Shown here: piece after piece, positions 1 through 27,000 of the stretch
Layout: every line of letters starts with the position of its first letter
Position numbering within the stretch: position 1 is the stretch's first letter
Assembly: GCA_903918555.1 (NCBI GenBank)
Contig: CAIXEV010000627.1
Location: forward strand, 1-29,368
Reading direction: 5' to 3'
Length of the DNA: 29,368 bases
Source: an uncultured bacterium
GTDB taxonomy: Bacteria; Planctomycetota; Phycisphaerae; Phycisphaerales; SM1A02
The notes under the pieces: generated by a model
Database searches by the model: none
Told to the model about the DNA's origin: nothing
The model's input: the letters and a program-made list of their open reading frames with translations, nothing else
Program-made: the position numbers and the translations under genes

Positions 1-1
1 G

Positions 2-3000
2 ATCGGTGCGGCGGTCACCCTTGCGCTCAACGATGTTCGGGGCGGGGCGAAGGCGACGATCGACAGGACGACGCTGACCGCCGATGGCAACGTTGTCGTG
101 TCGGCGACCGAAGCAGCGTCTTTGACAGCAGAACTCAGCACCGACCTCGTGGCTACGACGCGCCCCAGCATCAAGCCGGGTACGTCGCTGGCCGTCAACG
201 CGTCCATCGCTACGAACACGGTCCTGAGCGGCGCGAGCGCGGCCATTACCGACAGCGCGGTGACGACGACGAGCGGCGGCTCGGTCGATGTCAGTGCCAG
301 CAACACGGCGGAGATCAGCGCGACCATCGCCGCCAGCACGACCTCCAGCGGCGTCTCGGTCGGCGTGACGCTGGCGTTCAACACCATCGGCTGGCAGTCG
401 CAGAACTTCCTGTTCAATACGCTCGACGCCTTGCTGGGCACGGGAATCGGGACGGCTCAGCCAGACGAAACGGTCGCCTTCATCAAGAACACGACCGTGG
501 CCGCCGATGGCGGCATCAGCGTCACCACAGACTATGCGGCAAGCATCGATGCCAGCATCGAATCGGCCTCCGTGACGCTGAAGGGCAACGTCAACGGCGG
601 CACTGCGGTGAGCGTGGGTGCGGTCATCGCGATGAACAAGATCGCCTCGCGCACGCAGGCGTACGTGGAAGGCGGCGCGACGATCTCCGCGAGTGGCGAC
701 ATCAGCATTTCCGCGACGGACGATTCGACGATCGACGCCCGGTCCGCTGCGGCGTCGACGTCAGTCGCGGCGTCGGTCACGGCTTCGACCTCGGTGTCGA
801 TCGGGGTGAGCGTCGCCCGCAACGAGATCGAGAACGACCTGACTGCGTTCATCCGCAACGCAGGGCAGGTGACCGCGACGGACGGCAGCGTGACGGTGAG
901 CGCCGAGCAGAACGCCGGCATCGACGCGACCTCCACTGCCAGCTCGGTCACCGTGGCCGTGGCCGCAGGTGGGGGCAAGGCCTTTGGCGGTGGTGGCGCG
1001 ACTGCGGTCAACTACATCCGGGGCAAGTCGAACGCGTTCATCGAGGGCGGTAGCGTCTCGGCGACCGGGACGAGTGCTGGCATGGGAGACGTGGCGATCA
1101 CCGCCGACAACACCTCCAGCATCCATGCCGAGGTGGCGGCAGTCTCGGTGTCGGCAGCGCTGGGGTCCGGTAGCTCTCCGGCTGCATCCATCGGATTCTC
1201 GCTGGCACGCAACTTCATCGGCTGGGATTCGAGCGGCGGTTCGTCGGTGGCCACGACCTACACGTCCTCGCAGAATCCCACCACGCTCAGCACCGGCCAG
1301 ACGGTCAGGATCCAGGGCGGAACGCGGGCTGGAGACATCTACGAGTATGTGGGACCGACGTTGACCGACGGCGATCCCAACACGGCTGGCAACCAGCCGA
1401 TCGACCTCGACATCCAGAACTTCCACGACAAGGGCGCGTGGAAGCAGGTCAACCTCAATGCGTCGGCGCTTGAGGTGCAGGCCTACATCAAGAACGCCAG
1501 CGTCACCGCCGCCGACGCACTGACACTGGACGCCGATTCGAATTCGAACATCGACGCCGTCGTACGCGCCGGGTCGGCTGCCTTGTCCGGGGGAGGTGCC
1601 ACCGGGCTCGCAGTCTCGGGCGCGGGCGTGTACGCGGAAAACCGCATCAAGACCTATGTCAAGTCCTATATCGACGGCGACGGGACCACCGGCATCAGCG
1701 CGCGCAGCGTTTCGCTGACCGCCGACGACGCTTCGGGCATCGATGCGATTGCCGGTGCCTCCTCGCTGGCGGGCGCGATCGGCGGCACGACGGGCGCGGC
1801 GGTTTCCATCGGCCTGTCGATCGCGTTCAACGAGGTGAGCAACGAGGTCGAGGCGTATGTGCTGAACGCCGACCAGGGCGTGTCGGCCACGGCCGGTAGC
1901 GTGACGATCGCAGCGACCTCGCAGGGACCGCATCTGTTCGACCTCACCCTTGTTGGCAGCCTGACCACGGCCAACCTGGACGATGCGGCCAAGGCCGACC
2001 AGGACGATCCGGGTACGACCGGCGCCAACGAGGCGAAGACCGATCTGGCTGCAGACATGACTTTCCTGGGTCAGCTGCGCACGGCCATGAACACCGGACT
2101 GACCGGTGTCGGTAGGGCCGCGCTCGCGATTGCAGACACGGTCGCAGCCGAATCCATGTACACCACGGGTTCCGGCTCGCGCGACCTGCGCGAAGGCACC
2201 ACGGTCAAGCTCGCCGCGGGCTACTCGGCTGGCGGGGTGGCGGGACGGGTGTACCGGTACGTGGGCGCCGACGCCAACAACGTCAACCTCGGCACGCAGA
2301 ACTACGCGACCACTGCCAACTGGGTGCTGGTCGACAAGCTCAGGCTCTCGACGCTGGTCGAAGGCGAGAGCTGGTCGCTGCTTGCGCCAGACGGCACCAG
2401 CTATCTGCTGGAGAAGAGCGGCTCGCTCCTCAAGGTTTCGAAGAACACGATCAACGTCGTTTCTTCGGCGGCGTCGTTGTCCGCGGGCTTTGGCGGGACC
2501 ACAGGCGTCGCCATCAGCGGCGCGGGAGCTGTCGCACAGAACGTGGTCCTCACCAGGACCAACGCGTTTGGCCAGAACAGCATCCTCCGCAGCTCCGACG
2601 ACGTCGCGCTGAGCGCAGCGAGCACGACCACGATCTCCTCCGGTGTCGCCGCGGCTTCGCTGGCGCTGGGTGGCGGTGGCACGACCGGTGTCGGGGTTTC
2701 GATCGGCATCGCGGTGGCGCAGAACCTCATCGGATGGACGCCGAACGCGAGCACGTCGACTCCCGCCCAGGTGCAGGCGTATCTCAAGGACACCGCGGTC
2801 CAGGCGGGCGGCGACCTTACCCAGTCTGCAGTGGCGAGGCAGACCGTCAATTCCGTGGTGTTGGCCGGGTCGGCCGCACTCGCGGCCGGCGGCACCACGG
2901 GCGTCGGGGTAAGCGGCTCCGGCGTCTACGCCGAGAACAAGATCGGCGTCGATGTGAAGAGCTACATCGACGGCGACCGCAGCAGCGGAACCGCCGGTGT

Positions 3001-6000: not shown

Positions 6001-9000
6001 GAGTGCCACGATCAGCGCGAAGGTGGATGCCGCTTCGGTGGCGCTGGCTGGTGGCGCGGTCGCGATCGCCGCCAGCGGGGCGGGCGCCGATGTGCAGAAC
6101 AAAGTCTCGACGAAGGTACAGGCCTATGTCGACGGCTCGCGCGGCGCCGGTGTGGTTGCCGGCACCGGTGGCCTCACCATCAGTGCGCAGGACACCTCCA
6201 CGATCACCGCGCAGGCCTTCGCCGCGTCGGTCTCCGGGTCGGTCGGGCTCGTCGGCGGCTCGGCGGCCATCGGCGTCGCGCTGACGAGCAACAGCATCGG
6301 CAACGACGTGCGGGCCTTCGTGCGTTCCGCGACGGTGAGCACTACTGGCAACATGACCGTGCAGGCCATCGAGTCGGCCTCGATCACGGCCGTGTCGCAG
6401 GCAGCCGCCGTGTCGGCCTCCGCCGGACTGAGCGTCTCGCTGTCGGGCGGCGGCGCTTCCGCCTCGGCGAACGTGACCACCGCCACCCGCGCCTTCGTCG
6501 AATCGAGCACGGTCACGGTGACCGGGGATCTCGTCATCAACGCGCAGGTCGTCGCCACCGCGGTGGCGCGGGTCGATGCGACCGCGGCCTCGTTCGGGCT
6601 CATTTCGGCGGCCGCCGCAGGATCGGTGGTGTCCGCGACGGTCAACCCGACCGTGGAGGCGCGGCTGTCTGGCTCAACGGTGAGCGCGCGCGACGTGACG
6701 GTCAGCGCGAGCGCGCAGCCCAAGGCCGATGTGCAGGCGAGCGGTTTCGCCGTCAGCAGCGGAGTCTCGGTCGGCGTTTCCAGAGCGGACGTCACGCTGG
6801 CCCCTGTTGTCACCGCCACCGCCGGCGGCACGATGACCGCGAACAGCCTGAGCGTTTCCGCCAGGCATCTGCTGCCTGCGAGCGGAAAGTCCGCGAACGC
6901 CTATGCCGCGGCCAGCACTGGCGGCTTGCTGATCGGTGTTTCCGCGACGATCGCCCGAGCGTCCAACAGCGCCCAGGTCGTGGCGGCGATCGCCAACAGT
7001 TCGAACCTGAACATCACCGGCAACGTCAGCGTCGCGGCCAGCAACAGCACGCGGCAGGACGCCGAGGCGACCGCGGTTGCGGGCGGTGTGCTTGCAGCAG
7101 GCGTCGCGGATTCGAGGACCACTTCGAACACGTCGAACACCGCCACCCTGGGCACGAACGTGACGTTGACCGCGAGCAGCCTGAGCATCGGCGCCACGGG
7201 GCACGACGCCAACTACGCGACCACCACGGCCGGCAGCGGCGGCGTCGCCGCGGGTGCCTCGGCCAAAGCCGCCACCTCGGGCACAAGCAACACGCTTGCC
7301 TCGATCGGCGCGAGCAGCAACGTCAACCTTTCCCTGCGCGGCACGGGTGAATTGAGCCTGTCGGCCGAGCACACGGCCGCCCTCAACACACTGCAGATCA
7401 CCAGCGCGGGCGGCGTCATCGCAGGCGCGGGCGTGTCCGTGGACAACGAGGTGATCTCGGCGGTGGACGCAACCATCGGCGCGTCCGCCACGGTCCTCGC
7501 TCGCGAAATCGACCTCTCGGCGACGAACAACGTCGACAAGCCGACCTTCGCCGACATCCCCAACCCGAACCCCCTGCTGGGGTTGTTCATCCCCACCGTC
7601 TCGGTACCCAACGTGAAGGGCTCGACCGGCGGTCTCGCGAGCGGTGCGGGCATCTCGAGTGATTTCCGCATCACCCTCAATACCAACGTCACCGTGGGCG
7701 CATCGGCCAACGTCCAGACGGTCGGTGTGATCACCGACGATACCCTGATCAGGATGCGGGCGTTCAACAGTATCGTCGCGCAGGACAAGGTGTCGTTCCT
7801 GTCCGGCGGCGCTGTCGCAGGCGCCAGCGCCGACGCGAAAATCCGCACGCTCGCCGATGTCGCGCGCGTCACGATCGGCGATGGCGTGACGCTGCTCAGC
7901 AAGGGCGCGCTCGAGCTCTCGGCGCGCGGCACGGGCAACGTGGTGCAGAAGATCAGCGTCGATGTGTTCGGCGCGGGCACGCTGGTCAAAGGCGAGTCCC
8001 GCATCGACATCAATCCGCTCAATGAGGTGACGATCGGAAGCGCCGCGATCACCGCCTACGGCGACCTCAAGATCTCCGCGGGGCGCGACACCGACTTCAA
8101 CTCCGACCGCTACAGGCTTGAGGCGCGCTACGACGGACTCGCGGGCAGCCTCGTGCCCATCGACAGCGTCGACGGCAAGGCGTTCCTGATCCAGGAGAAC
8201 CGGATCAACATTGGAACCGGCGCCCACCTGAGGACCGCCGGCCAGGCGAAGCTGCACGCCGAGCGCGACAGCATCAACGACCTGACGGCGAAGGCGAAGA
8301 TCACGAGTTGGACGAGCGCGATCGGCGACGGGCTGCTGGCGCTCACCGGCGGCGGCGCCGACCAGTACAACGGTCACCTGTTGCAGGAGGCGCATGGCAC
8401 GGTAACCAACAACGGCACGGTCGAGACAGGCATTACGCGCCGTGTGATGCTCTCCCTCAACTCCTGGAATGCCCAGGCCGGCACCGTGACCGGCACGCCG
8501 AGCGACGGCGTCACCTTCACCACCTCCCAGGAGATCCAGAACAGCACGCTCGGCACCGATCTGGCGAACGCGAAGGATCTGCTCGCCAAGTACGGTTCGA
8601 TCGACGCCAAGCTGCAGGCGTACTACTCGAGCGAAGTGACCCGTATTCAGCAGGAGATGTTGGCCAAGAAGCTCGGGTTCTTCCAGAGCGACGGCGTCAC
8701 CTTCACGCCGGTCACGAGCTATGTGATGACCGTGACGGTGGATCCGATCCGGGCGCAAGCCGGGCGCATCGATGTGCGTGGCGACCAGCTGGTGGGCGAA
8801 AGCAACGGCCGCTGGATCGCGCCGACCGACGCGAGCGTGACGATCACCAACAACACGCCGGCGTTCCTGAACCTGAAGGGCATCACGATCCCCGACGAGG
8901 TCGGCCGCCTGTTCTTCAACGGCGGGCTGGTTGGCACCAATGCCGCGATCAAGGCGGAGAATCAGCGGAACGTCGACGACGACAATTCGCGTTCTTCCGC

Positions 9001-15000: not shown

Positions 15001-18000
15001 CACGTTCGCGATGGATTCCACCAGTTCGGCGCTGACGGTCTACGGCGATGCGGGGGCGGATCGCTTCCAGGTGGGCCAGATCTTCAAGTCGCCGCGCGAC
15101 GCCGACGCGGGGCTCGTGGGCGAAGACCGGTTCGCGACCACGCTCACGACGCGCGGCTACCTGAGCGACGGGGTCAACTTCGACGCCTTCCTCTATGGCG
15201 GCGCGGGCAACGACACCTTCACCATCTACCGCAACAAGGCGAACGTCTTCCTGTACGGCGAGGAGGACGACGATACCTTCACCGTGCGCGCCTTCGTGGC
15301 GGTGGACCCGAACGACCCGCTCAAGCCGATCACCAATATCAACGGCGGCAAGGGCAAGGATCTCATCACCTACACGGTGAACGCACCGGTGAACATCGAC
15401 GGCGGCGACGGGTCCGACACCCTGATCGTCGTCGGCACCGAGTTCGCGGACAAGATCGTGGTCACCGACGCCGGCGTCTATGGCGCCGGGCTGTTCGTCA
15501 CCTACACCTCGCTCGAGAACATCGTCGTCGATGGACTGGAGGGTAACGACCAGTTCTTCATCGCCAGCACGCCGGCGGGCGCGACGGTCAGCACGATCGG
15601 CGGCAAGGGCAGCGACACGTTCAACGTGGCGGGCAACGTCACCGCCGAGCCGATCGACGTGGTGAGCAACGACCTGCTCGGCCACAGCGGGATCATCGAC
15701 CTCGCCATCCCCTCGGCCAACACGACCGATGCCGGGTACCAGAACCGCTTCATCGGGGATATCTCGGCGAGCGTGATGGACAACGAGTCGGCCGGCATCG
15801 CGCTCACCATGCTGGGCGGGGTGCTGCGCGTGTTCGAGGGCAACAGCAGCAGCACGCTGACGCGCAGCCGCTATTCGGTGGTGCTCACCCGCGCGCCCCA
15901 GGAAGACGTGCGCGTGACGGCCTCGCCGGCGACGATCCGACAGGCCGATGCGCTGGCCGGTGGCAAGGGCATCGCACTCAACGGCAGCGAGGCCGGTACC
16001 ACGCTGCGGTTCGACCGTACCAACTGGTTCATCCCGCAGATCATCGAGGTGACGGCGCCGGCCGACACGCTCGCCGAAGGCCGCCGGGCCATCAACATCC
16101 AGCACACGGTGGTGCAGGGGGCGGACCTCGGCGATGGCGGCGAATACGATTCGCTCGCGCTGCCGTCGCCGGTGGTCGAGGTATTCGACGACGACGCGGC
16201 GGGCGTGGTGATCACACCCGCCTCGAACGGGCAGGTGATCGTCAACCAGGACAGTTCGGTCAGCGTCGGCAGCGACGCCAACGCCTACTACGTATCGCTG
16301 GCGCGGCAGCCCACGGGCGACGTGGAGATCAACCTTGCCGTTCAGCCCGACGACAACGGCGTCGCCCAGGTCTACACCGACGCCCAGGTCTACCCCGCCG
16401 GCGTCTACGCAGGCATCCCCCATCTCAGCTTCAACACCACCAACTGGGCGACCCCGCAAACGGTGAAGGTGACGGCGAAGCCCGACCCGACGGGGGTACT
16501 GCAGGGCACGCAGTTCGTGCGTATCCAGCACAGCGTGGCTGCGGAGAGCGTCAACAACTTCTACGGGCTGAGCCTCGATGACGTGGCGCGCGGTCTTGCT
16601 GCAAAGGTGGCCGGCGACCTGACCGGGCAGTACACCGCGACGGCGACCGGGACCACCGTCACGATCACCGGCAAGGCGGCTTTCACTGCCACGAGTCCCG
16701 ACAGCAGGGTCACCGTCGTGGGCGCCGAGTCCGCGTACAGCGTGGCCCATATCACGCCGGCGGGGGCGGTGGCCGCAGGCGACCGCTACACGCTGTCGGT
16801 AAACGGCCGCCAGTCGGTCTATGTCGCCGGGGCCAACGGGGATGAGCTCACGCTCGCAGCCGTCGCGCAGGGCATCAAGGCCGCGTACGACGCCAGTGCG
16901 CTCGCCGGGGTGACCGCAAGCATTGCCAGCGCCGGTACGGTCACGTTCACCGGCCAGACGAGCGTCATCCCGGCCTTCACTGCCCGTTTGGTCCAGTCGA
17001 ATGCGTCGACGGCGACGGTGACCGGTACGACAGTTGACGGCCGCTTCGGCAAGGTCACCGTCACCGTAGCCGAAGAGGTGAAAAAAGACGAACTCTGGAC
17101 GCTGAAGCTCGGCGACTCGACCTACCGCTACGTAGCCGGGAAGAACGGCGAGATGACGGCGCTGCCGTCGATCGATGTCACGCTGACCGACAAGGATTCC
17201 GCCGGCGTGCTGGTCACCCAGTCGGGTGGAGACACCCGGGTGATCGAGCCGACGGATCTCGTGCTGCTGGGCGCAGCCGAGGTGACCGGAACGGCGACTC
17301 CGGGACAGGGTCTGAGCATCGCCAGCGCGGACGCGGTGCGGCTCGAAGTCTTGATTGCCGAGGCGCCGACCGCGACGTCGGTGTCGTCCGGGCGAGCGAC
17401 CGTCAGTGGCACCCAGGTGTGGACGCAGGCCGACATCACGCTATCCGGCACGGTGGTCGCCGGAAACACGTGGAGCGTCCGGATCGAGGGCCGCAACTAC
17501 GCCTATGTCGCCAAGGATACCGACACCACTCTGGCGCACATCGCGACCGGGCTGATGACCGTACTCACCGCCCCCACCACCGCCCCCACCCCCGGCCTCG
17601 GCGGCAGCTACGCAGTGAGCCTGCCCGAGGGTTCGAGCGGTGTGGTGGCGGTGTCGAAGGCCACTGGCTTCACCGTGCAGGTGCTGAGCGGCAACGGCGC
17701 GCTCACCGGCACCAGCGCCTGGCGCAATCCGGTCATCGCGCTGAGCGGTACCCCGGGCAACTCGGAAACCTGGACTGTTCGTGTCAACGGCACGAACTAC
17801 AGTTACGCCACCCCCGCGACCGGCGCCGTGACACTGTCGATGGTGGCCGACGGCATCAAGACCGCGCTGACCTCCGGCGGTACGCCCGCGTTCGCGTCCG
17901 CAGCGGTCACCAAGGTTGCCCTGACCCAGTTCATCGCCAACTTCGGTGCGTCGGAAATCAACGAGGCCGCCGGCCGCAAAGACTCGATCTTCACCGCGCA

Positions 18001-21000
18001 GTCCCTCGAAGTCGACGTCTGGAACCGCCAGCCCAACGCCAACATCCTCAACGCCGATACCCGACCGCATGTCACGGTTCGCGGCACCGGCGACGGCACC
18101 ACGGACGTCTACAAGTTCGTCGTTACCAACGAGATGCTCGCAACGGGGTCGGTGACGGCCACCTTCGATATCGACAAGGGCCTGGACTACTTCGACAGCA
18201 TCTTCTGGGCAAGCCAGCTCAACCTCTACAACAGCAGCGGGGCGCTGATCGCAAGGGGGCTTGGCTACTCCAACCCGTCAGACCCATCGAAAGGCGCGGG
18301 CGGCAGCACCACCTGGCTCGATGACTTCCTGACCTACACCTTCACGACTGCGGGCACCTACTTCGTCGAGATCACGAACTGGATTCCGCTGGGTACCAAC
18401 TCGAACGGCATCCCCAAGGGCGCCGACTACGAGCTGCAGGTCTCGATCGATCGGCACAAGACGGCCGAGTTCGTGCTCGAGGCGGCGCCAGTGCTCAAGC
18501 AGGGCGACACCGTCCAGAACGTCGACGCGGCGGGCAACTGGTACACCTTCCTCGATCCGACCATCGGCAACGGCACCGACATCGGCTCCAGCACGCCTTA
18601 CGTGAAGATCAGCGCGCTGGGCGACGACACCGTCGACCGATACTCGTTCGTGGTGTCCGCGGCCAATCTGTCGCAGGCGGGAGGCACCTCGGGCACCACC
18701 GTCGGCGAGACGCCCGCCCGCACGTACTACACCAGCGCCGATGTGCAGCTGACCGGACGGGTCAAGGCGGGCGATGTCTGGACGGTCAGGCTGAGCGGCC
18801 TGGATTACACCTATACCGTCAGCGCCGCCGACGTCACGGCGGAGACCGGCGCGTCCGGTGCGGGCCTGGCGAACATCGCGAGCGGACTCGCGGCAAAGAT
18901 CACTGCCCGCACGACAACCAATACCGACGGTGTGGCCGACATCACGCAAGGCGCGACGTACAGCGCGGCGGTGTCGGCCGACCCGAAGACCCTCCGCATC
19001 ACCGATCCGAACGGCTTCTGGTTCGCACTCGACCATCAGATCGACGACGCGGCCGTGGTGCTGCGCGAGGGCGCGGTGCAGGGCAATTCGACGCTGCCGC
19101 TGACCCGCGCCGATGTCGTGTTCTCGGGCACGGTTACCGTTGGCGACGTCTGGACGGTCACGCTCAACGGCACCCCGTACGTCTACACGACGACCACCGC
19201 GAGCCTGGACGATGTGGCGGCGGGTCTGGATACCGCCATCGGTACCGTCGCCGGGGTGTCGGTCGCCGCGAGTGGCAGCACGCTCGGCTTCACCGCGACC
19301 GGCAGCAACAGCTTCACGCTCGCCGTGAAGGAGAGCGGCCAGACCGCCGACGGCGTCGCGAAGTTCACCAATGTCGCCACCCGCGCTGCCTACCAGCAGG
19401 CCGATGTCGCGCTGAGCGGCACCGTGACGGCGGGCAATACCTGGACGCTCAGCCTGCGCGACCAGGCGGACATCGCGACCGACTACACATTCACCGCGAC
19501 CACGACGAGCCTCGCCGATGTTGCGGCGGGCCTGGTGAGCACGTTGAACACGACCAAGCCGGGAACGGCGACCTACGCCGCCACGCAGTACGGCCAGGTG
19601 GTACGCATCACGGATGCCGGGACCGGCAAGTTCTTCACGGCGTCGATCGCAAGTTCCGGCACGGGTAGCGGCACGGTGAACGGGATCGCCGTGCAGACCG
19701 CCGCCCAGGATGTCAAGTGGACGAACGCAGCGCTTGCACTCACCGGCACCTTCAGGGCGGGCGATACGTACGCGGTCACGGTCAACGCGGGCACCGCTTC
19801 CGCCTATACCGCGACCTACGTGGCGGGGGCGGCGGGCACCGCCGGTACCACCGGCACGACGACCACCTACGCCGCGACGCTCGAAGGCGTGGCGCTGGCG
19901 CTGCGCGACGCGATCAACAACATGGCGCCCGCCGGCAAGACCTACGCGGCGACGGCAAGCGGCACCACGCTGACGATCGCTGATCCGGCTGGCGTCACGT
20001 TGACCTATGGGGTCACCGGCGCAGCCTCGGCCGGCACCCTGGCCAGCGCGAACGCGTGGACGAAGTCGCTCGCGTTCGCCAACCCGGTGGCGGGTGACGC
20101 GGGCAGAACCTACACGGTCGCCGTCGACAACGTCTATTTCAACGCAACCGCGGACGCCACGCCGACGGCGGCGGAAATCCTCGCCGCGTTGAGCACGGCG
20201 ATCAACGCGAACGCCAGCTACGCCGCCACCTACGACACCGACGCGACACGCGGGTCAGGCGTGCTCACGATCGCGAAGAAGGACCGGTCGGCGATCGTCG
20301 CGCGGCTCGAGCAGGGAAGCGTGTCCACGCCCTCGGCGGCGGTCGCGGACGCGGCGAAGGTAGTGACCATCGGCACCCCGACGGCCGACCAGGTGCACAC
20401 GCTGATCCTGAAGGAAACGTCGAGCGGCACGGTACGCGCGTTCACCTACCACGCCGATGCTTCGCCGACGGCGGCCGAAGTGGCGACAGGCCTGGCGGCG
20501 GCGGTGAACGCCGGCTCGGCGACCCACAAGTTCGCCGTGTCTCGCAGCGCGGACGTTGCCGATACGCTGCTGATCACCAACACCGATGGCCTCGCGTTCA
20601 CGGCGGATACCACCCGAGGGAGTACAAGCGTGGTGTCGGGGACCTCCGCGTACACCTACCGTCTGTCCGGTACTGTGACCGCCGGCGAGGTGTACTCGGT
20701 GACGCTGGTGCCGGCGAGCGGCAGCGCGAGCGTGTTCGCGTTCGAGGCCGCGACCACGGCCATCGACGACGTGCTCGCAGGCCTTGCCGCAGCGGTCAAC
20801 ACGGCGGGGAGCGGCTACACCGCGACCGCCCGCACCGCAAGCGACACGCTGACGATCGTCAACAATGCCGGTGCCACCTTCAGCGTCAGCACGACCCGCG
20901 GCACGGCCGCCGCCGACGCGGGCGCGGCGAGCGCAAGGCTCTCCGGTGCGGTGAGCATTGGCGACGTGTTCACCGTCGCGCTGAAGCGCGGCGCGTCGAC

Positions 21001-24000
21001 GGAGTACTACTCCTATGCCGCGACGACCACGTCGATCGACGATGTCCTGACCGGTCTGAAGACCACGATCGGCACGACGAACTACGCGGTGACCGCCGAC
21101 GCCACCAGCGGCACGCTGACCGTGGTGCGCAACAGCGCCGGCGCGCTGACGATGAGCGTGGACCGCGGCACGGCGAAGGATATCTCGTCGTGGGCTGCCT
21201 CGATTTCGGTGGGCGGCACCGGCATCGCGGATGGCGATACGGTGACCGTACGCGTGGCCTACGGGTCCGGTCCGACGACCAAGGACTACGCCGTGACGGT
21301 GAGCGGGATTACTGTCGACATGACGGACGTACAACGGCAGCAGACCGTCGCCGGACTCATCGCCACTGCGATCAATACCGACTCCCCGGCACTCTTCTAC
21401 GCCGATGTCGAATCCGGCAGCGCGGTGGTGAACGTCTTCAGCGCGGCCAAGGTCGACGCGACCACGGCGATCGTGTCTGTGACGAAGCAGGCTGGCGCCG
21501 CATCGATCACCCTCGCGCCGGTGACGAACGCCACTCAGTCGGTGCAGGTGACCGGCACCGCCGCAGCGGGCAAGGTCTGGACCATCGGCCTGCCGAACCC
21601 GACCGCTGGCACGGACTACTACAGCTTCGCCGCTACCACCGCGAACCTCGCGGACGTGGTCACCGGCCTGGTCGCGGCGATCAATGCCAGCACCGTCACC
21701 TCGGGCTTCTCGGCGGTGGATTCGTCGCATAACGGAGCGACCGTGCCGTCGCTCACGATCACCCGGAGCAGCGCGATCGCGTTCACGGCCTCGGTGGCGA
21801 ACCCGGCGGCGAGCCTGGCGGATTCGTCGGGCTGGACCGAGACGCTGAAGCTTTCCGGGACGGTCGCGACGAACACCGCCTGGGTCCTGTCGGCGAAGAG
21901 CGGCACGACCTACGCGACGTTCGGTTACGCGGCGACGAGTTCCGACACCACGCTCGCAAGCGTGGCGTCCGGGCTCGCCGGCGCCGTCACGGGGGCGAAC
22001 TACCGCGCGCTGGACACCGGCAACGACACGGTCACGCTGTTCCGGATCGACAGAGCGACGACCACCGTATCGACGACAGCACCGGTCGCGACGCTGGTCG
22101 ACGCCGCCGCCTGGACCGAAACCCTCCGGCTGGCCGGCACGCCGACCGAGGGCATGGTCTACGCGGTGGGCACCAAGGACGCCGTCCCCACGCCAGCGTA
22201 CGAAACATACAGCGTGGTCGCGGGTTCGACCCCCGACCTGGCGACCCTCACGACAGCGCTGGCGACTGCGCTGGATGCCTCCGCAACCTACGATGCGATC
22301 GCGACCGGCAACAACACCATCACGATCCTGCGCGGCGCTGACACGAACGCCTTCAGCGCGCTGACCACGCTCGGGGCGAACCCGTCCGATGCAGCCGCCT
22401 GGTCCAAGGCGGTGCAGGTCTCGGGCACCGTGGCCACCGGCAAGATCTACACCGTCGCGCTGACGACGGCATCCGGAGCGCCGACCTACTTCAACTACAC
22501 CGCGAGCGCGACCGACACGCTGGACTCCGTGACGACTGCGCTGTCCGGGCTGATCGACGCCAGCAGCGGTTACGCCACCCTGGTCACCGGCGCCTCCGGC
22601 AGCAAGGTGATCCACGTGCTGCAGCAAGGCGGCATCACCGGCATCACGTCGTCGACCAGCCTCGCTGCCCCGGCCACGGACGCCGCCGCCTACGCCGAGA
22701 CCGTCGAGGTCGGCGACACGGTCGGCGGCACGGTGGTGGCGCGTGAGACCTGGAACATCACCCTCACGCCATCGAGTGGCTCGCCCGTCACCTTCAGCTA
22801 CGTGGCCGGGTCCGGAGCGGATATCGCGGACGCGCAGACCGTCGCCCAGCGCCTCGCCGCGCAGATCCATGCGAACGTTTCGTACAACGCCACCGCCTTC
22901 CAGACCGCCGCCGGCACCTGGGTGGTGGCGATCAGCGCGCAGGGCGGGACGGGCGGATTCACTGCGACCCAGAGCGTGTCGGCAGCCGCGCCTCTGGTAC
23001 GACCGACCCTTGGCGGCGAGGCGAAGGTCGCGTGGACGCAGCAGGTCACGCTTGCCGATGGCGCCGGCTTAGATGACGTCTGGACGGTGCGCCTCGATGG
23101 CACCAGCGGCCTCAGCAACTATCAGCTCACCGGCAGCACCGACACCAGCGCGACGGCCGCCGCGGCGCTCGCCGGCTCGACCGGTTACGTGGACCTGGGT
23201 ACCACCGGCAACGTCGCGAAGTTCCGGCAGGTCAACTCGAACTTCGTCACGATCGGGCAACGCACCTGGATCGATCGCCTGGCGCCGACCGCGACGACCG
23301 CCCCCGCTGCAGACAGCGTCGCCGCGTCGGCACGGCTCACCGAGTACAACTTCACGCTCGCCGGCAAGGTCAGTGTCGGCGATGTCTGGGCCATCAAGCT
23401 CAACGGTATCGAGTACAAGTACACCGCCGCCGCAGGCAACAACCTCAACGCCGTCTCGATCGGACTGCGCGCGGCCATCAACGCCGGCGGGCTGTTCACG
23501 GCCGCGGGCAGCGGTGCGGACATCAAGGTCACCATCAAGCCAGGTGCCTGGTTCACCGGCTTCACGCAGAACCTGTCCCAGGGCGGCGGCAAGGTCAGGG
23601 CAGTGCTGGATATCGACCGCACCCGCGTCATGCAGGGGGTCCAGACCTTCCTGCAGACGAACTATGTCCCGGTGTACTACTTTGGGTTCTTTGGTGGGTA
23701 TCAAGTCGTCACCACCGCCGTCAACGTCAGCTACATCGACACGCCGGTCGTGACGCTGAGGGACGCGTCTGGCAATGTCGTCTTGCCGGTGAGCACGAAC
23801 GCAGGCGCGACCACGCCGGATGCGGGCAGTACCCTGCTTACCGACCCGCTGCAGACCTACGAACTGTCCGCCGCTGGCACCTACACGGTCGAGGTCATGG
23901 CCTCCCGTCAGTATCTTCAGGCGAATCCCTTCGCGAGCAACGGACTGGTGGGTATCGCCAGCGGGCAGCCGTACGCCCTCAACGTGTCGCTCCAGCGCCA

Positions 24001-27000
24001 TGCGGTCAACGAGGATGCGATCAACCTCGTCGGCAAGCAGGTGACGCTGACCACCGGCACCAACCGCGGCACCACCGCGCGCATCCTCGCCTACGACGCA
24101 CCGAGCAAGACCTACACGCTTGACCGGGATACGACCGTCGGCAGCGGCAACCGCTTCGACATCCAGTACGACATCACCTCGGAGTACCCGGCCTACGCGG
24201 CGAGTTCCGACACCTTCCAGGTCGTGCTGACCCGGGCGCCGACCGCGAATGTCACGCTCGACGTGACGCCGCAGGTTACCGCGACCTACAACTCAGACCT
24301 GGCCTTCTCGGCACGTGACAACTACGGCCAGACCGAGGGCATCCAGGTTGACACGGCCACCCCGCAGGCGAAGATCGAACTGACCGGAACCCCGGTCGCG
24401 GATCAGGTCTGGCGCCTCGCGCTGGGCGGCGTGAACTACGACTACACCGCATCGGCTGCGCCGACGCTGGCGAGCGTGGCCACCGGCCTGAAGGGCGTGA
24501 TCGACGCCGCCAACGCGGGCTATACCGTCACCGTCGCCAGCGGCACGCTCACCGTGAGCCGCTACGCGGGCGATGGCGCCGCGTTCACCGCGCTGCTGTC
24601 GATCCTGCCGTACTCCGAGGGCAGCGTCGCGATCACGCAGCTCGCCGCGACGCCCTGGAAGGCGGCGCTCGCGTTTGCCGGTCCGGTGCGGCAGGGCGAG
24701 GAGTGGAAGGTCAGGCTCAACGACGTCGACTACGCCTATACCGTGCAGTATGGCGACGACCTGGGCGCGGTAACGCTAGGGCTGTTCGAGCAGCTCAAGG
24801 CAGTGACGAGCCTGCGTGTCTCGCTCACCGGCCTGGAACTCACCGTCGCCACTGCCGATCGCACGACGCTGCTCGCCGCCAGCTACACGATCAAGGCCGC
24901 CGGGACGCCCGCGGTGGTGCTGCCTGCGGCGACCGCCGGCGCGACCGTGACCTCCCAGCTCGTCTTCTCGAGCGACGCGTTGCACGGGAACGGTTGGAAC
25001 AAGCAGCAGACGGTCACGGTCACCGCGCGTGACGATCGCATCCTCGAGGGGCACGACCTCAAGGTATTCCCGGCGATGGGCGAGCGGATCAACACCATCC
25101 GCGGTCCGCTGTTCATCGACGGCGGTGCGCAGTACTCGGATGCGAACGCCCTGAACGAGCCGTTCATGACGGCGGGCGAGACCAACCTGGTCCGGCCGAA
25201 CAGCACGATCGCCGCCTTCGGCACCACGACAGCGACGATCAACGGGCAGGCGACCACGGTAGCGACGCTGACCGATACGCGGATCACGCACGTCGATGCG
25301 GCGCGCGGCGAGATGCCGGGTCTCGATCCGCGCATGAACGATTACGCGTACCAGATCACGGTGATCAATTCGCCGGGCGTGGGCACGCCGATGGATCTGC
25401 TGCTGGGTGGTCTGAAGGGCGACACGCTGGCGGTGAAGGCCGAGGATGGCACCAGCACGCTGCAGGTGGTGTCGTTCAACGGCCCGGCGGGTGCCTCGGT
25501 CTCGGTGAAGGGCCGCGGCGACGCCGGCACGCTGTACTCGAAGGCGGATATCGTCCTCAAGGGCGACGTGTTCAAGGACAGCGTCTGGGAACTCAATGTC
25601 GGCGGCACTGCGTTCTCGTACACCGCGGGCAGCCGGCCGGGGGGCGCGACGGCGGACGACGCGCTCACGCTCGATATCGTCGCGCTGCGCCTGGGCAACG
25701 AGATCGCGGCGGCGGGGTTCACGGTCGTGCGCACCGGCTTCCTGCTCGAGATCAGCCGCGCAGCGTCCTTTGCCGCGAGCTTCACGCCGGGCAAGGGCAA
25801 CGCGACGATCCTCGGGACCCCGGCCAGCGACACCGGCGTCAGCTGGGCGGTGGCCGAGGTGAAGTTCGCGATGACCCAGCCGATCACGGCCGGCCAGGTC
25901 TGGAGCGTCACCCTGCTCAAGTCGGGCGGTGCCGAAACGAACCAGACCTACACCTACACGGCGCGTACCGGCGACGACCTGACGGCGGTCATCCTGGGCC
26001 TTGCCGACCAGATCGACATCAGCTCGCGTTACCACTCGGACATCAAGTACGAAACCGCCACGTTCACCACGAACTGGCCGGCGAGTCCCGCGGTGGCCAA
26101 CGGGCTGGGCTACTACATCACCCCGCTCAACCGCAACTTCCTGGCGGTCGAGGCGGACCAGGTCGACGTGCTCAATCTTTTCAACCGCGCGAGCGTCTCG
26201 GACGACGCGGGCGTGCTGACCGACTCGCGCCTCACCGGCTTTGGGATGGGCGGCGACACGGTGGTCGCCGGCAAGGCGGTTAAGGGTGGCATCAGCTACC
26301 AGGGGCTCGAGCAGCTGAACCTGATGCTGGGGTCCGGCAACGACCGGCTGACCGTCGAGTCGACGCATCTGGGCTCGACCACGATCACCAGCGCCGGCGG
26401 CAACGACACCATCACGATCAAGACGGTTGCCGGCCACACCTTCGTGGATACGGGCGCAGGCAGCGACGTGGTGAACGTCGGCAGCGACCTGAACGTGGTC
26501 GACCAGATTACCGGCTTGCTGGTGATCAGCCAGGGCGGCGACGGTGCCGGCGATGTGCTCAACGTGGTCGATTCCGGCGATGAGAACGCCAATACGGCGA
26601 CCCTGACCCAGAGCACGCTGACCGGTCTGGACATGCCCACGGTCGCGGAGGTCCAGACCATCCGGGTGCAGGCGAAGGAGGGCACGTTCCGCCTCGGCCT
26701 CGCGCCTGAACTGTATGTACCTGGCGCGCCGTACGGCGAGGCACAGACCATCACCTACGACAAGTCCGGTAGCGGCGCCGGCGTGTCTGACATCCAGACG
26801 AAGCTGCGCGTCCTGTATGGCACTTCCGACCTGATCGTGACCGAGGTCGGCCGCGAAATCGCGGCGGGAGAGACCGACGCGCGAGCGATCACCTACGCCC
26901 TTACCTTCACCGGTGCGAAGGCCGGCGTCGACATGCCGAAGGTCGTGTGGGCGGAGGCGCGCGCCGCGATCGACGTGTCGGCGCAGAAGCCACTCACCAA

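Follow-up and report, generated by a model that had tools for sequence, protein, structure and literature searches.

What keeps a small protein domain together when more than 1,600 residues of repeats lie between its halves, and what does it mean that nearly the same short motif stands at both ends of the interruption? The locus that raises this question is the contig CAIXEV010000627.1 of an uncultured member of the Planctomycetota (GenBank assembly GCA_903918555.1), which was analysed over its entire length of 29,368 nt and will be referred to as the window. One open frame without stops fills the whole contig (frame 2, + strand, 9,789 aa). A first-pass annotation had described in this frame a domain resembling the pre-peptidase C-terminal (PPC) domain, split by 16 repeats and carrying the motif NLSQ-x-GG at both junctions, and had taken the motif pair for a trace of the insertion. 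Our analysis indicates that aa 6163-8004 very probably represent one split domain of the PPC fold, which is a paralogue of the intact neighbouring domain (domain 1) and hosts the repeat array, and that the likeness of the two motifs is a lineage-specific coincidence or convergence and not a relic. The elements concerned are as follows:

17975..18469, + strand: domain 1, intact PPC-fold beta-sandwich and reference for the split paralogue (aa 5992-6156, 165 aa, contiguous)
18488..18685, + strand: N-half of domain 2 (aa 6163-6228), in which an N-terminal segment is followed by strands 1-2 and a short turn (ML, here NL), with NLSQAGG at its end
18665-18685 and 23570-23590, + strand: the two motif copies, NLSQAGG and NLSQGGG, respectively
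18686..23569, + strand: insert of 16 tandem, individually diverged modules of ~100 aa, each with three strands, a helix and further strands (aa 6229-7856, 1,628 aa)
23570..24013, + strand: C-half of domain 2, beginning with NLSQGGG, followed by PPC strands 3-8 (aa 7857-8004)

Domain 1, which is contiguous as had been annotated, was modelled with AlphaFold2 together with the N-half of domain 2 and repeat 1 (model m297476992658; 51-row alignment, mean predicted local distance difference test (pLDDT) 86). The model shows domain 1 as a sandwich of eight strands, with residues 1-160 mostly at pLDDT 88-98 per 10-residue block and three blocks at 80-88. Foldseek searches with this model returned the C-terminal domain of Tk-SP (3afg, E 2.3e-6), the collagen-binding domain (CBD) of ColG (1nqd, E 3e-5, template modelling (TM) score by target 0.64) and the B. 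anthracis pre-peptidase C-terminal domain (5sv5, E 7e-5), with the ColG/ColH collagen-binding domains 2o8o and 3jqw also among the best matches. Scanning domain 1, the halves of domain 2 and the repeats against Pfam yielded nothing relevant, and a sequence search of the PDB with a profile built from domain 1 and both halves of domain 2 (A2) gave no meaningful match. The same profile found 1,153 cluster representatives at E ≤ 1e-3, among them relatives that exceed the cut-off of 25.9 for the Pfam PPC family PF04151 (P0008 with 46.3 bits, P0047 with 36.2, P0120 with 31.4 and P0152 with 30.3) and whose PF04151 matches fall inside their A2 match coordinates. By this transitive evidence, the PPC label holds at the level of fold or superfamily. 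The profile is also a practical gain, as it describes a PPC-related family of which some members, including the domains of the window, are unreported by Pfam.

Compared with the PPC and collagen-binding domains (PF04151; ColG/ColH; 1nqd, 3jqw, 5sv5), the same beta-sandwich is found by Foldseek and VIA-align, both in the domain 1 model and in the split domain of the homologue P0059 described below. The common signature consists of a GDG-x-D-x-Y-x-F strand, an x-FDID strand and a G-x-Y-x-V-x-V strand, and the tandem order of domains 1 and 2 recalls the tandem collagen-binding domains s3a-s3b (5iku). The window copies differ in scoring under the Pfam reporting level, in carrying an extra N-terminal segment of ~40 aa and in lying inside a giant protein instead of at the C-terminus of a secreted peptidase, and one of them is split.

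The evidence that the two parts of domain 2 belong together comes from their relation to domain 1. A BLASTP comparison of domain 1 with the whole protein gave two collinear matches, in which residues 33-64 correspond to aa 6199-6230 (E 0.012) and residues 84-167 to aa 7917-8004 (E 6e-6). Aligning profiles with hhalign placed the N-half on positions 7-58 of the domain 1 profile (probability 98.3%, E 1.5e-14) and the C-half, as its exact complement, on positions 59-164 (probability 99.3%, E 2.1e-20). When the halves are joined, the alignment with domain 1 that the first-pass annotation had proposed runs end to end with 33% identity over 161 positions. Shared between domain 1 and spliced domain 2 are the GDG-x-D-x-Y-x-F strand, the ML turn, the x-FDID strand, a GST..D segment, a G-x-Y-x-V-E-V strand and the closing Y-x-L-x-V-S-x-x-R-H; artificially spliced sequences entered only local alignments and a tree. 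In the domain 1 model, the position of the break lies in the loop joining strands E44-50 and E60-67. Since this loop varies between 2 and 9 residues in the orthologues of domain 1, it tolerates insertions and deletions. The whole split domain comprises 1,842 aa, of which the host accounts for ~210 residues compared to 165 aa for the intact paralogue.

To see the halves in one model, we turned to P0059:4535-5440, the natural split domain with the shortest insert (7 repeats), which was modelled with AlphaFold2 from an 18-row alignment (mean pLDDT 79.8, predicted TM score (pTM) 0.52). With the C-half present, the N-half forms strands E38-44 and E50-56; in the model of domain 1, the N-half and repeat 1, which was made without the C-half, it forms no proper strands. 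Exhaustive superposition with VIA-align placed whole solved PPC domains on the model range 1..891-895, namely 5sv5 (99/105 residues, 2.6 Å, Z 8.5), 3jqw (102/117, 2.6 Å, Z 8.7) and 1nqd (101/111, Z 7.9), as well as PliG 4dzg (104/114, Z 9.7). Because compact PPC structures superpose over this range, both halves of P0059 would lie in one sandwich, which is good but indirect support for their coming back together. The complementarity seen with hhalign and the model of P0059 together point to a host fold that is completed from both sides of the insert. In this respect, the first-pass annotation was borne out: one PPC-like domain, paralogous to its intact neighbour, is split by a repeat array in one loop.

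It might be argued that the halves are not one domain, the N-half being left over, in degenerate form, from a partial duplication of domain 1 and the C-half being a truncated PPC domain completed by other strands. The little secondary structure of the N-half when modelled without the C-half would fit this explanation, as would the fact that the reunited model comes from a homologue and not from the full split domain of the window. A degenerate remnant, however, is hard to reconcile with an N-half that is as conserved as domain 1 in 51 sequences from several phyla, where its P, Y, G, D and F columns are near-invariant, nor does it agree with the exact complementary mapping on domain 1 or with PPC structures that superpose on both halves jointly in the homologue model. 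We consider two separate halves quite improbable and regard the single split domain as the preferred reading.

The insert itself was analysed with an iterated repeat hidden Markov model (HMM), which detected 15 units between the junctions and one divergent unit in a gap of double length, confirming the 16 repeats reported previously. The interruption thus stands, and only its length had to be corrected, as the 1,635 aa given at first count one copy of the motif, whereas 1,628 aa lie between the copies. Repeats that correspond one to one between orthologous proteins are 50-74% identical, those within one protein 30-45%. R1-R2 and R15-R16, at the two ends of the array, are kept in every orthologue, and gains and losses are internal. 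In the AlphaFold2 model, the core of R1 reaches pLDDT 87-95 per 10-residue block, with a dip to ~61 in a loop (model residues 311-330).

Structural matches of the modules comprise decoration domains of phage tail nozzles and sheaths (T7 gp12 6r21, 8i4m and 8kee, Z 10.8-12), the flagellin FliC of P. aeruginosa (4nx9, Z 8.6), the lytic polysaccharide monooxygenases CbpD/GbpA (7sqx and 8gul, Z 7.4-8.1) and, more weakly, FliD caps. In T7 gp12 the likeness is to residues 147-248 of the nozzle protein, while 8i4m and 8kee are tail-complex and sheath proteins of cyanophages. Over the flagellin D2/D3, FliD cap, CbpD/GbpA and phage decoration domains, these matches span Z 7.4-12 with root-mean-square deviations of 1.9-2.8 Å over 81-93 residues. 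All of these are surface-exposed decoration modules of filaments or tails, as the insert modules may be. The latter differ from the flagellin and phage domains in forming long tandem arrays inside a domain loop, and sequence identity is 12-24%.

A few further observations concern the array. P0002, a protein from the European Nucleotide Archive (ENA) with 96% identity to the window, is without four residues (DTVG) in repeat 14 (window aa 7565-7585), an in-frame microindel between close strains. The window and the Burkholderiales orthologue L005 differ by one block of two adjacent repeats. The number of inserted repeats is even in all four close orthologues (16, 18, 20 and 18) and odd in distant homologues, so that the even numbers may be due to chance. 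A strict hairpin deduced from an even repeat number was considered and rejected, since P0059 has 7 repeats and P0026 has 9.

How old and how widespread is this arrangement? The same order of parts was found in three orthologues with 54-70% identity, from a Burkholderiales metagenome-assembled genome (MAG; L005/L008), a Rhodocyclales MAG (L006) and Sulfuritalea (L007), with inserts of 1,828, 2,053 and 1,795 aa representing 18, 20 and 18 repeats, respectively. Among the 150 best A2 matches, at least 14 divergent proteins contain a full domain, an N-half, a gap of 700-1,600 aa filled by the same repeat family (7-20 copies) and a C-half, and many shorter fragments end after the N-half. Named sources of the split layout include Thermodesulfobacteriota, Prosthecobacter (Verrucomicrobiota) and Methylophilaceae; the relatives are annotated in their sources as 'hypothetical', 'beta strand repeat-containing' or 'Ca2+-binding RTX toxin-like'. 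The 13 spliced sequences of domain 2 fell into one clade (support 0.995) when a tree of 190 domains was built. As the layout is common to the orthologues and to at least 14 divergent representatives from several phyla, the insertion is ancient, and a single ancient event is the economical reading of these sequences. A search with the C-half in sixty relatives of the source MAG gave no match in those searched. Giant genes often remain unassembled.

The spread of the layout also bears on the suspicion that a metagenome contig has joined unrelated pieces within a repetitive gene. The window is one entire 29-kb contig of a MAG consisting of 731 contigs, and repeat arrays are prone to misassembly. 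Nevertheless, the repeats are diverged (30-45% identity), the same part order recurs in three other assemblies, one of them a 669-kb contig, and in at least 14 distant proteins, and the C-junction is reproduced in the ENA protein P0002 at 96% identity. An assembly artefact is therefore next to inconceivable.

Not all candidates for the split layout withstood inspection. The Acidobacteriota locus L009 was rejected as a homologue, being a TonB-receptor-type protein that shares only a GTYTVEV-like strand, and P0100 and P0105 were rejected as splits with short inserts because their N-part already holds the FDID strand and thus represents a different arrangement. In P0006:784-1108 and P0004:761-1056, one PPC-like domain is nested in another: an N-part reaching through the FDID strand is followed by a complete PPC-like domain and then by the remaining strands. 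The nested insertion site follows strand 3, unlike the site in the window.

This leaves the motif pair. The 9,789-aa frame contains just two occurrences of NLSQ, one at aa 6222 (nt 18665) and the other at aa 7857 (nt 23570); as had been noted, they lie in frame, 4,905 nt or 1,635 codons apart. NLSQAGG and NLSQGGG agree in 6/7 residues and 16/21 nt and directly flank the insert on both sides. They are the sole such pair in the protein, where no further 7-mer matches NLSQAGG at ≥ 5/7, and random pairs of 12-aa windows from the same protein reach 6/7 at a frequency of ~4e-4. The first-pass annotation likened the pair to a decayed target-site duplication or to microhomology from the event that inserted the repeats. 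Two further observations favour such a scar: three orthologues retain a weaker likeness of [ST][QR]xG[GA] to SQGGG (p about 0.002, the sequences being not independent), and at nt 8500/8686 of the same gene, a 62-codon insert lies between perfect direct repeats of 21 nt. Like a target-site duplication of a mobile element, a 7-codon direct repeat directly flanks the insert, in the sequence of the window alone. The insert, in contrast, is made of in-frame coding repeats whose family is also represented in other parts of the protein, element ends and a transposase are absent, and the repeat is neither ancestral nor present in an unsplit relative.

The 21-nt repeat (window 8500-8520 and 8686-8706) encodes the peptide SDGVTFT twice, and the 62-codon segment in between is helical. 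This segment is present in all three orthologues; L006 keeps both peptide copies, and in L005 and L007 the copies have diverged. The perfect nucleotide identity of this old repeat suggests local homogenisation or constraint.

Comparison of the junctions across the family argues against a scar. The N-junction reads [TS]-x-x-M-L in about 48 relatives, mostly followed by N-P, and the window is the only one with N for M; the form ML-[NSTDEK]-[PRQ] was counted in about 45 relatives. In distant homologues, the C-junction reads [RQ]-G-x-G-T and the N-junction ML-N-P-..., and the insertion is older than the divergence of many lineages whose two junctions have no motif in common. Domain 1 contains ML in all four orthologues, and its loops share only ML...G. 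In the three orthologues, the N side reads MLTQSGG, MLTQPGG and MLTRSGA and the C side NLSQGGG, DRSQGGG and DVSQGGG, so that the two junctions, which agree at 6/7 positions in the window, agree at 4/7, 3/7 and about 1/7 in the orthologues. Nine distant homologues showed no more similarity between their junctions than shuffled sequences did (p about 0.5, fixed-offset BLOSUM comparison), and significance (p about 0.002) was obtained only once the three close, non-independent orthologues were added. A family-wide 'GT-hydrophobic' duplication at both junctions was likewise rejected, as shuffling showed it to be not significant in distant homologues. Since ML is found in ~45 relatives and in domain 1, ML is taken as ancestral and the N in the N-side NLSQ of the window, which none of the other ~50 aligned sequences has, as derived. 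The resemblance of the junctions thus arose late, within one clade, and is strongest in the window by way of derived M-to-N and T-to-S changes. It has grown, and not decayed, in the lineage of the window, the opposite of what a relic would show. As the two DNA copies of the motif differ at synonymous sites, recent gene conversion is not the cause.

An unsplit relative, P0145, provides a second line of evidence. It represents one unsplit domain inside the split clade, and the domains after it are those that also follow domain 2 in the window. In place of the single NLSQ-like motif that was to be looked for at an empty site, its loop reads DSASPESP before IHVVMDID and contains no NLSQ, ML or GG-like motif. 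Caution is due, as the 3.5-kb contig that carries P0145 has frameshifts and its domain 1 is truncated; the clean PPC loop of P0145, however, could not be an invention of the assembler. Scanning metagenomes for better copies of the unsplit relative yielded only an identical contig. The JGI metagenome contigs L012 and L013, which represent this locus with the unsplit domain 2, are 100% identical over the 3,524 nt of L012, carry at least two frameshifts and keep only the last ~27 residues of domain 1, right after a truncated repeat; they may represent a decaying gene copy or a poor assembly.

Overall, a direct repeat flanks the insert, as expected of an insertion scar, but it is not shared by the descendants of the insertion, and the empty site has no single copy of it. 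The proposed scar did not hold up: with an ancient insertion, ancestral ML at the N-junction, dissimilar distant junctions and an unsplit relative without the motif, we consider it improbable. What remains as a cause is chance, the motif having been picked post hoc, or a mild convergence between the Gly-rich connectors that form the neck of the insert.

In the latter case, the connectors would be alike for structural reasons, pairing as a Gly-rich neck or hinge on which the array sits, and selection would have drawn their sequences together in this clade. Both junction segments are Gly-rich in most relatives. In the P0059 model, the N-side connector is a short strand (E68-72) just before repeat 1, and the last strand of the last repeat (E742-748) lies just before the C-side connector; moreover, the orthologues show unusual conservation of the strand AWFTGFTQ, which precedes the C-junction. 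Distant homologues are without matched junctions, so that any such constraint is not general, and chance suffices for a motif picked post hoc. We regard a selected neck as conceivable but doubtful. The preferred reading, a split PPC domain with a coincidental or convergent motif pair, is compatible with either cause.

How might such a protein be built? The chain would begin with the N-terminal segment, form strands 1-2 and the short ML turn, would then exit the host through the loop that is naturally variable in length, would run through 16 mixed alpha/beta modules of ~100 aa resembling flagellin outer domains and phage-tail decorations, and would finally come back to the host for strands 3-8. 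With its two ends tied to a single loop of a small domain, the array has to begin and end in one place, and it might therefore project as a folded-back loop or hairpin branch whose length is set by internal gain and loss of repeats (7-20 in relatives). A hint of folding back comes from the P0059 model, since the segments matched at repeat 3 (278-362) also include residues near 565-574, where repeat 6 begins. We infer such a folded-back geometry and a role as length-tunable surface projection of a giant RTX-type adhesin. Still more speculative is the idea that the split PPC domain acts as a molecular clasp, from which an array of 7-20 modules runs out and back as a length-tunable branch of double thickness or as a closed loop. 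This would be a conserved cross-phylum strategy for branched giant surface fibres, and the insertions of up to 2,053 aa would be the largest yet noted in one loop of a domain; we put it forward only tentatively and as rather unlikely.

Several points weigh against reading aa 6163-8004 as one reassembled PPC domain with a projecting array. PF04151 gave no match at E ≤ 1 for domain 1, the N-half or the C-half of the window. Reassembly was modelled in the homologue P0059 (18 rows, pTM 0.52) and not in the 1,842-aa stretch of the window, and the contact between the halves of P0059 was deduced from aligned ranges. The array geometry is likewise inferred, and the frame is open at both contig ends, so that both ends of the gene lie outside the contig.

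The surroundings of the split domain indicate the type of protein concerned. The further features detected in the window are as follows:

16751..17917, + strand: four complete units of the repeat family of the insert, ahead of domain 1 (aa 5584-5972), with a partial unit at aa 5498-5555, found with the repeat HMM
24374..26065, + strand: four more units of this family, located after domain 2 (aa 8125-8282 and 8517-8688), found with the repeat HMM
27623-27895: FlgD_ig (PF13860, E 7e-21), near the 3' end of the window
aa 8800-9789: RTX nonapeptide repeats (PF00353 HemolysinCabind, E 3e-7), near the 3' end of the window

The PF00353 match represents the C-terminal RTX nonapeptide beta-roll of the RTX adhesin class. 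Based on these repeats, on FlgD_ig and on the orthologous open frame of 15,301 aa on the 669-kb Burkholderiales contig, the split domain sits inside a giant RTX-type secreted protein. No peptidase domain was detected in the window, and the PPC-like domains are internal (aa 5992-8004) and not C-terminal to a peptidase precursor. In the 15,301-aa frame (G061:C10, ~268959-276650, loci L010 and L011), the C-terminal part contains many tandem copies of a segment matching window aa 9580-9789.

Taken together, the PPC domain is truly split, the split is ancient, and such a domain is apparently new to the literature. What is striking is not the motif but how large the insert is, with 1.6-2.05 kaa in a single loop of a ~210-residue domain, and its conservation across phyla. 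An attractive evolutionary reading, the motif as insertion scar, is removed as very probably wrong. Split domains now serve as flags for ligand-binding domains in RTX adhesins, and the present case suggests that the PPC fold can also be a split host and that what is projected can be a complete array of repeats, which is 0.7-2 kaa long and conserved in groups ranging from Burkholderiales to Thermodesulfobacteriota and Verrucomicrobiota. This raises the questions of how an array of 16-20 modules returns to its origin, how such a split domain folds during type I secretion, in which the C-terminus emerges first, and whether reach is tuned by gain and loss of repeats.

In RTX adhesins, split domains project inserted domains from the fibre axis and are sometimes nested (PMC12077191; bioRxiv 10.1101/2025.09.30.679566). 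Known split hosts are Ig-like split extenders, beta-roll, von Willebrand factor A (vWFA) and carbohydrate-binding module (CBM) domains, from which ligand-binding domains bud (PMC12077191, PMC10865825, bioRxiv 10.1101/2025.09.30.679566). The domain described here resembles these cases in that a small beta-rich host is begun, the chain leaves, builds something else and returns to complete the host, all within a giant Ca-binding RTX-type secreted protein, and nested splits are known in both. Both gene ends lie outside the contig, as would a retention module and a signal of the type I secretion system (T1SS). The present domain differs in its host, a PPC fold split after strand 2, which is not among the hosts in the cited papers, and in its insert: instead of a single projected, globular ligand-binding domain with adjacent termini, the loop contains a tandem array of 16 modules (7-20 in relatives), 1.6-2.05 kaa in length, whose ends must meet at the host loop.

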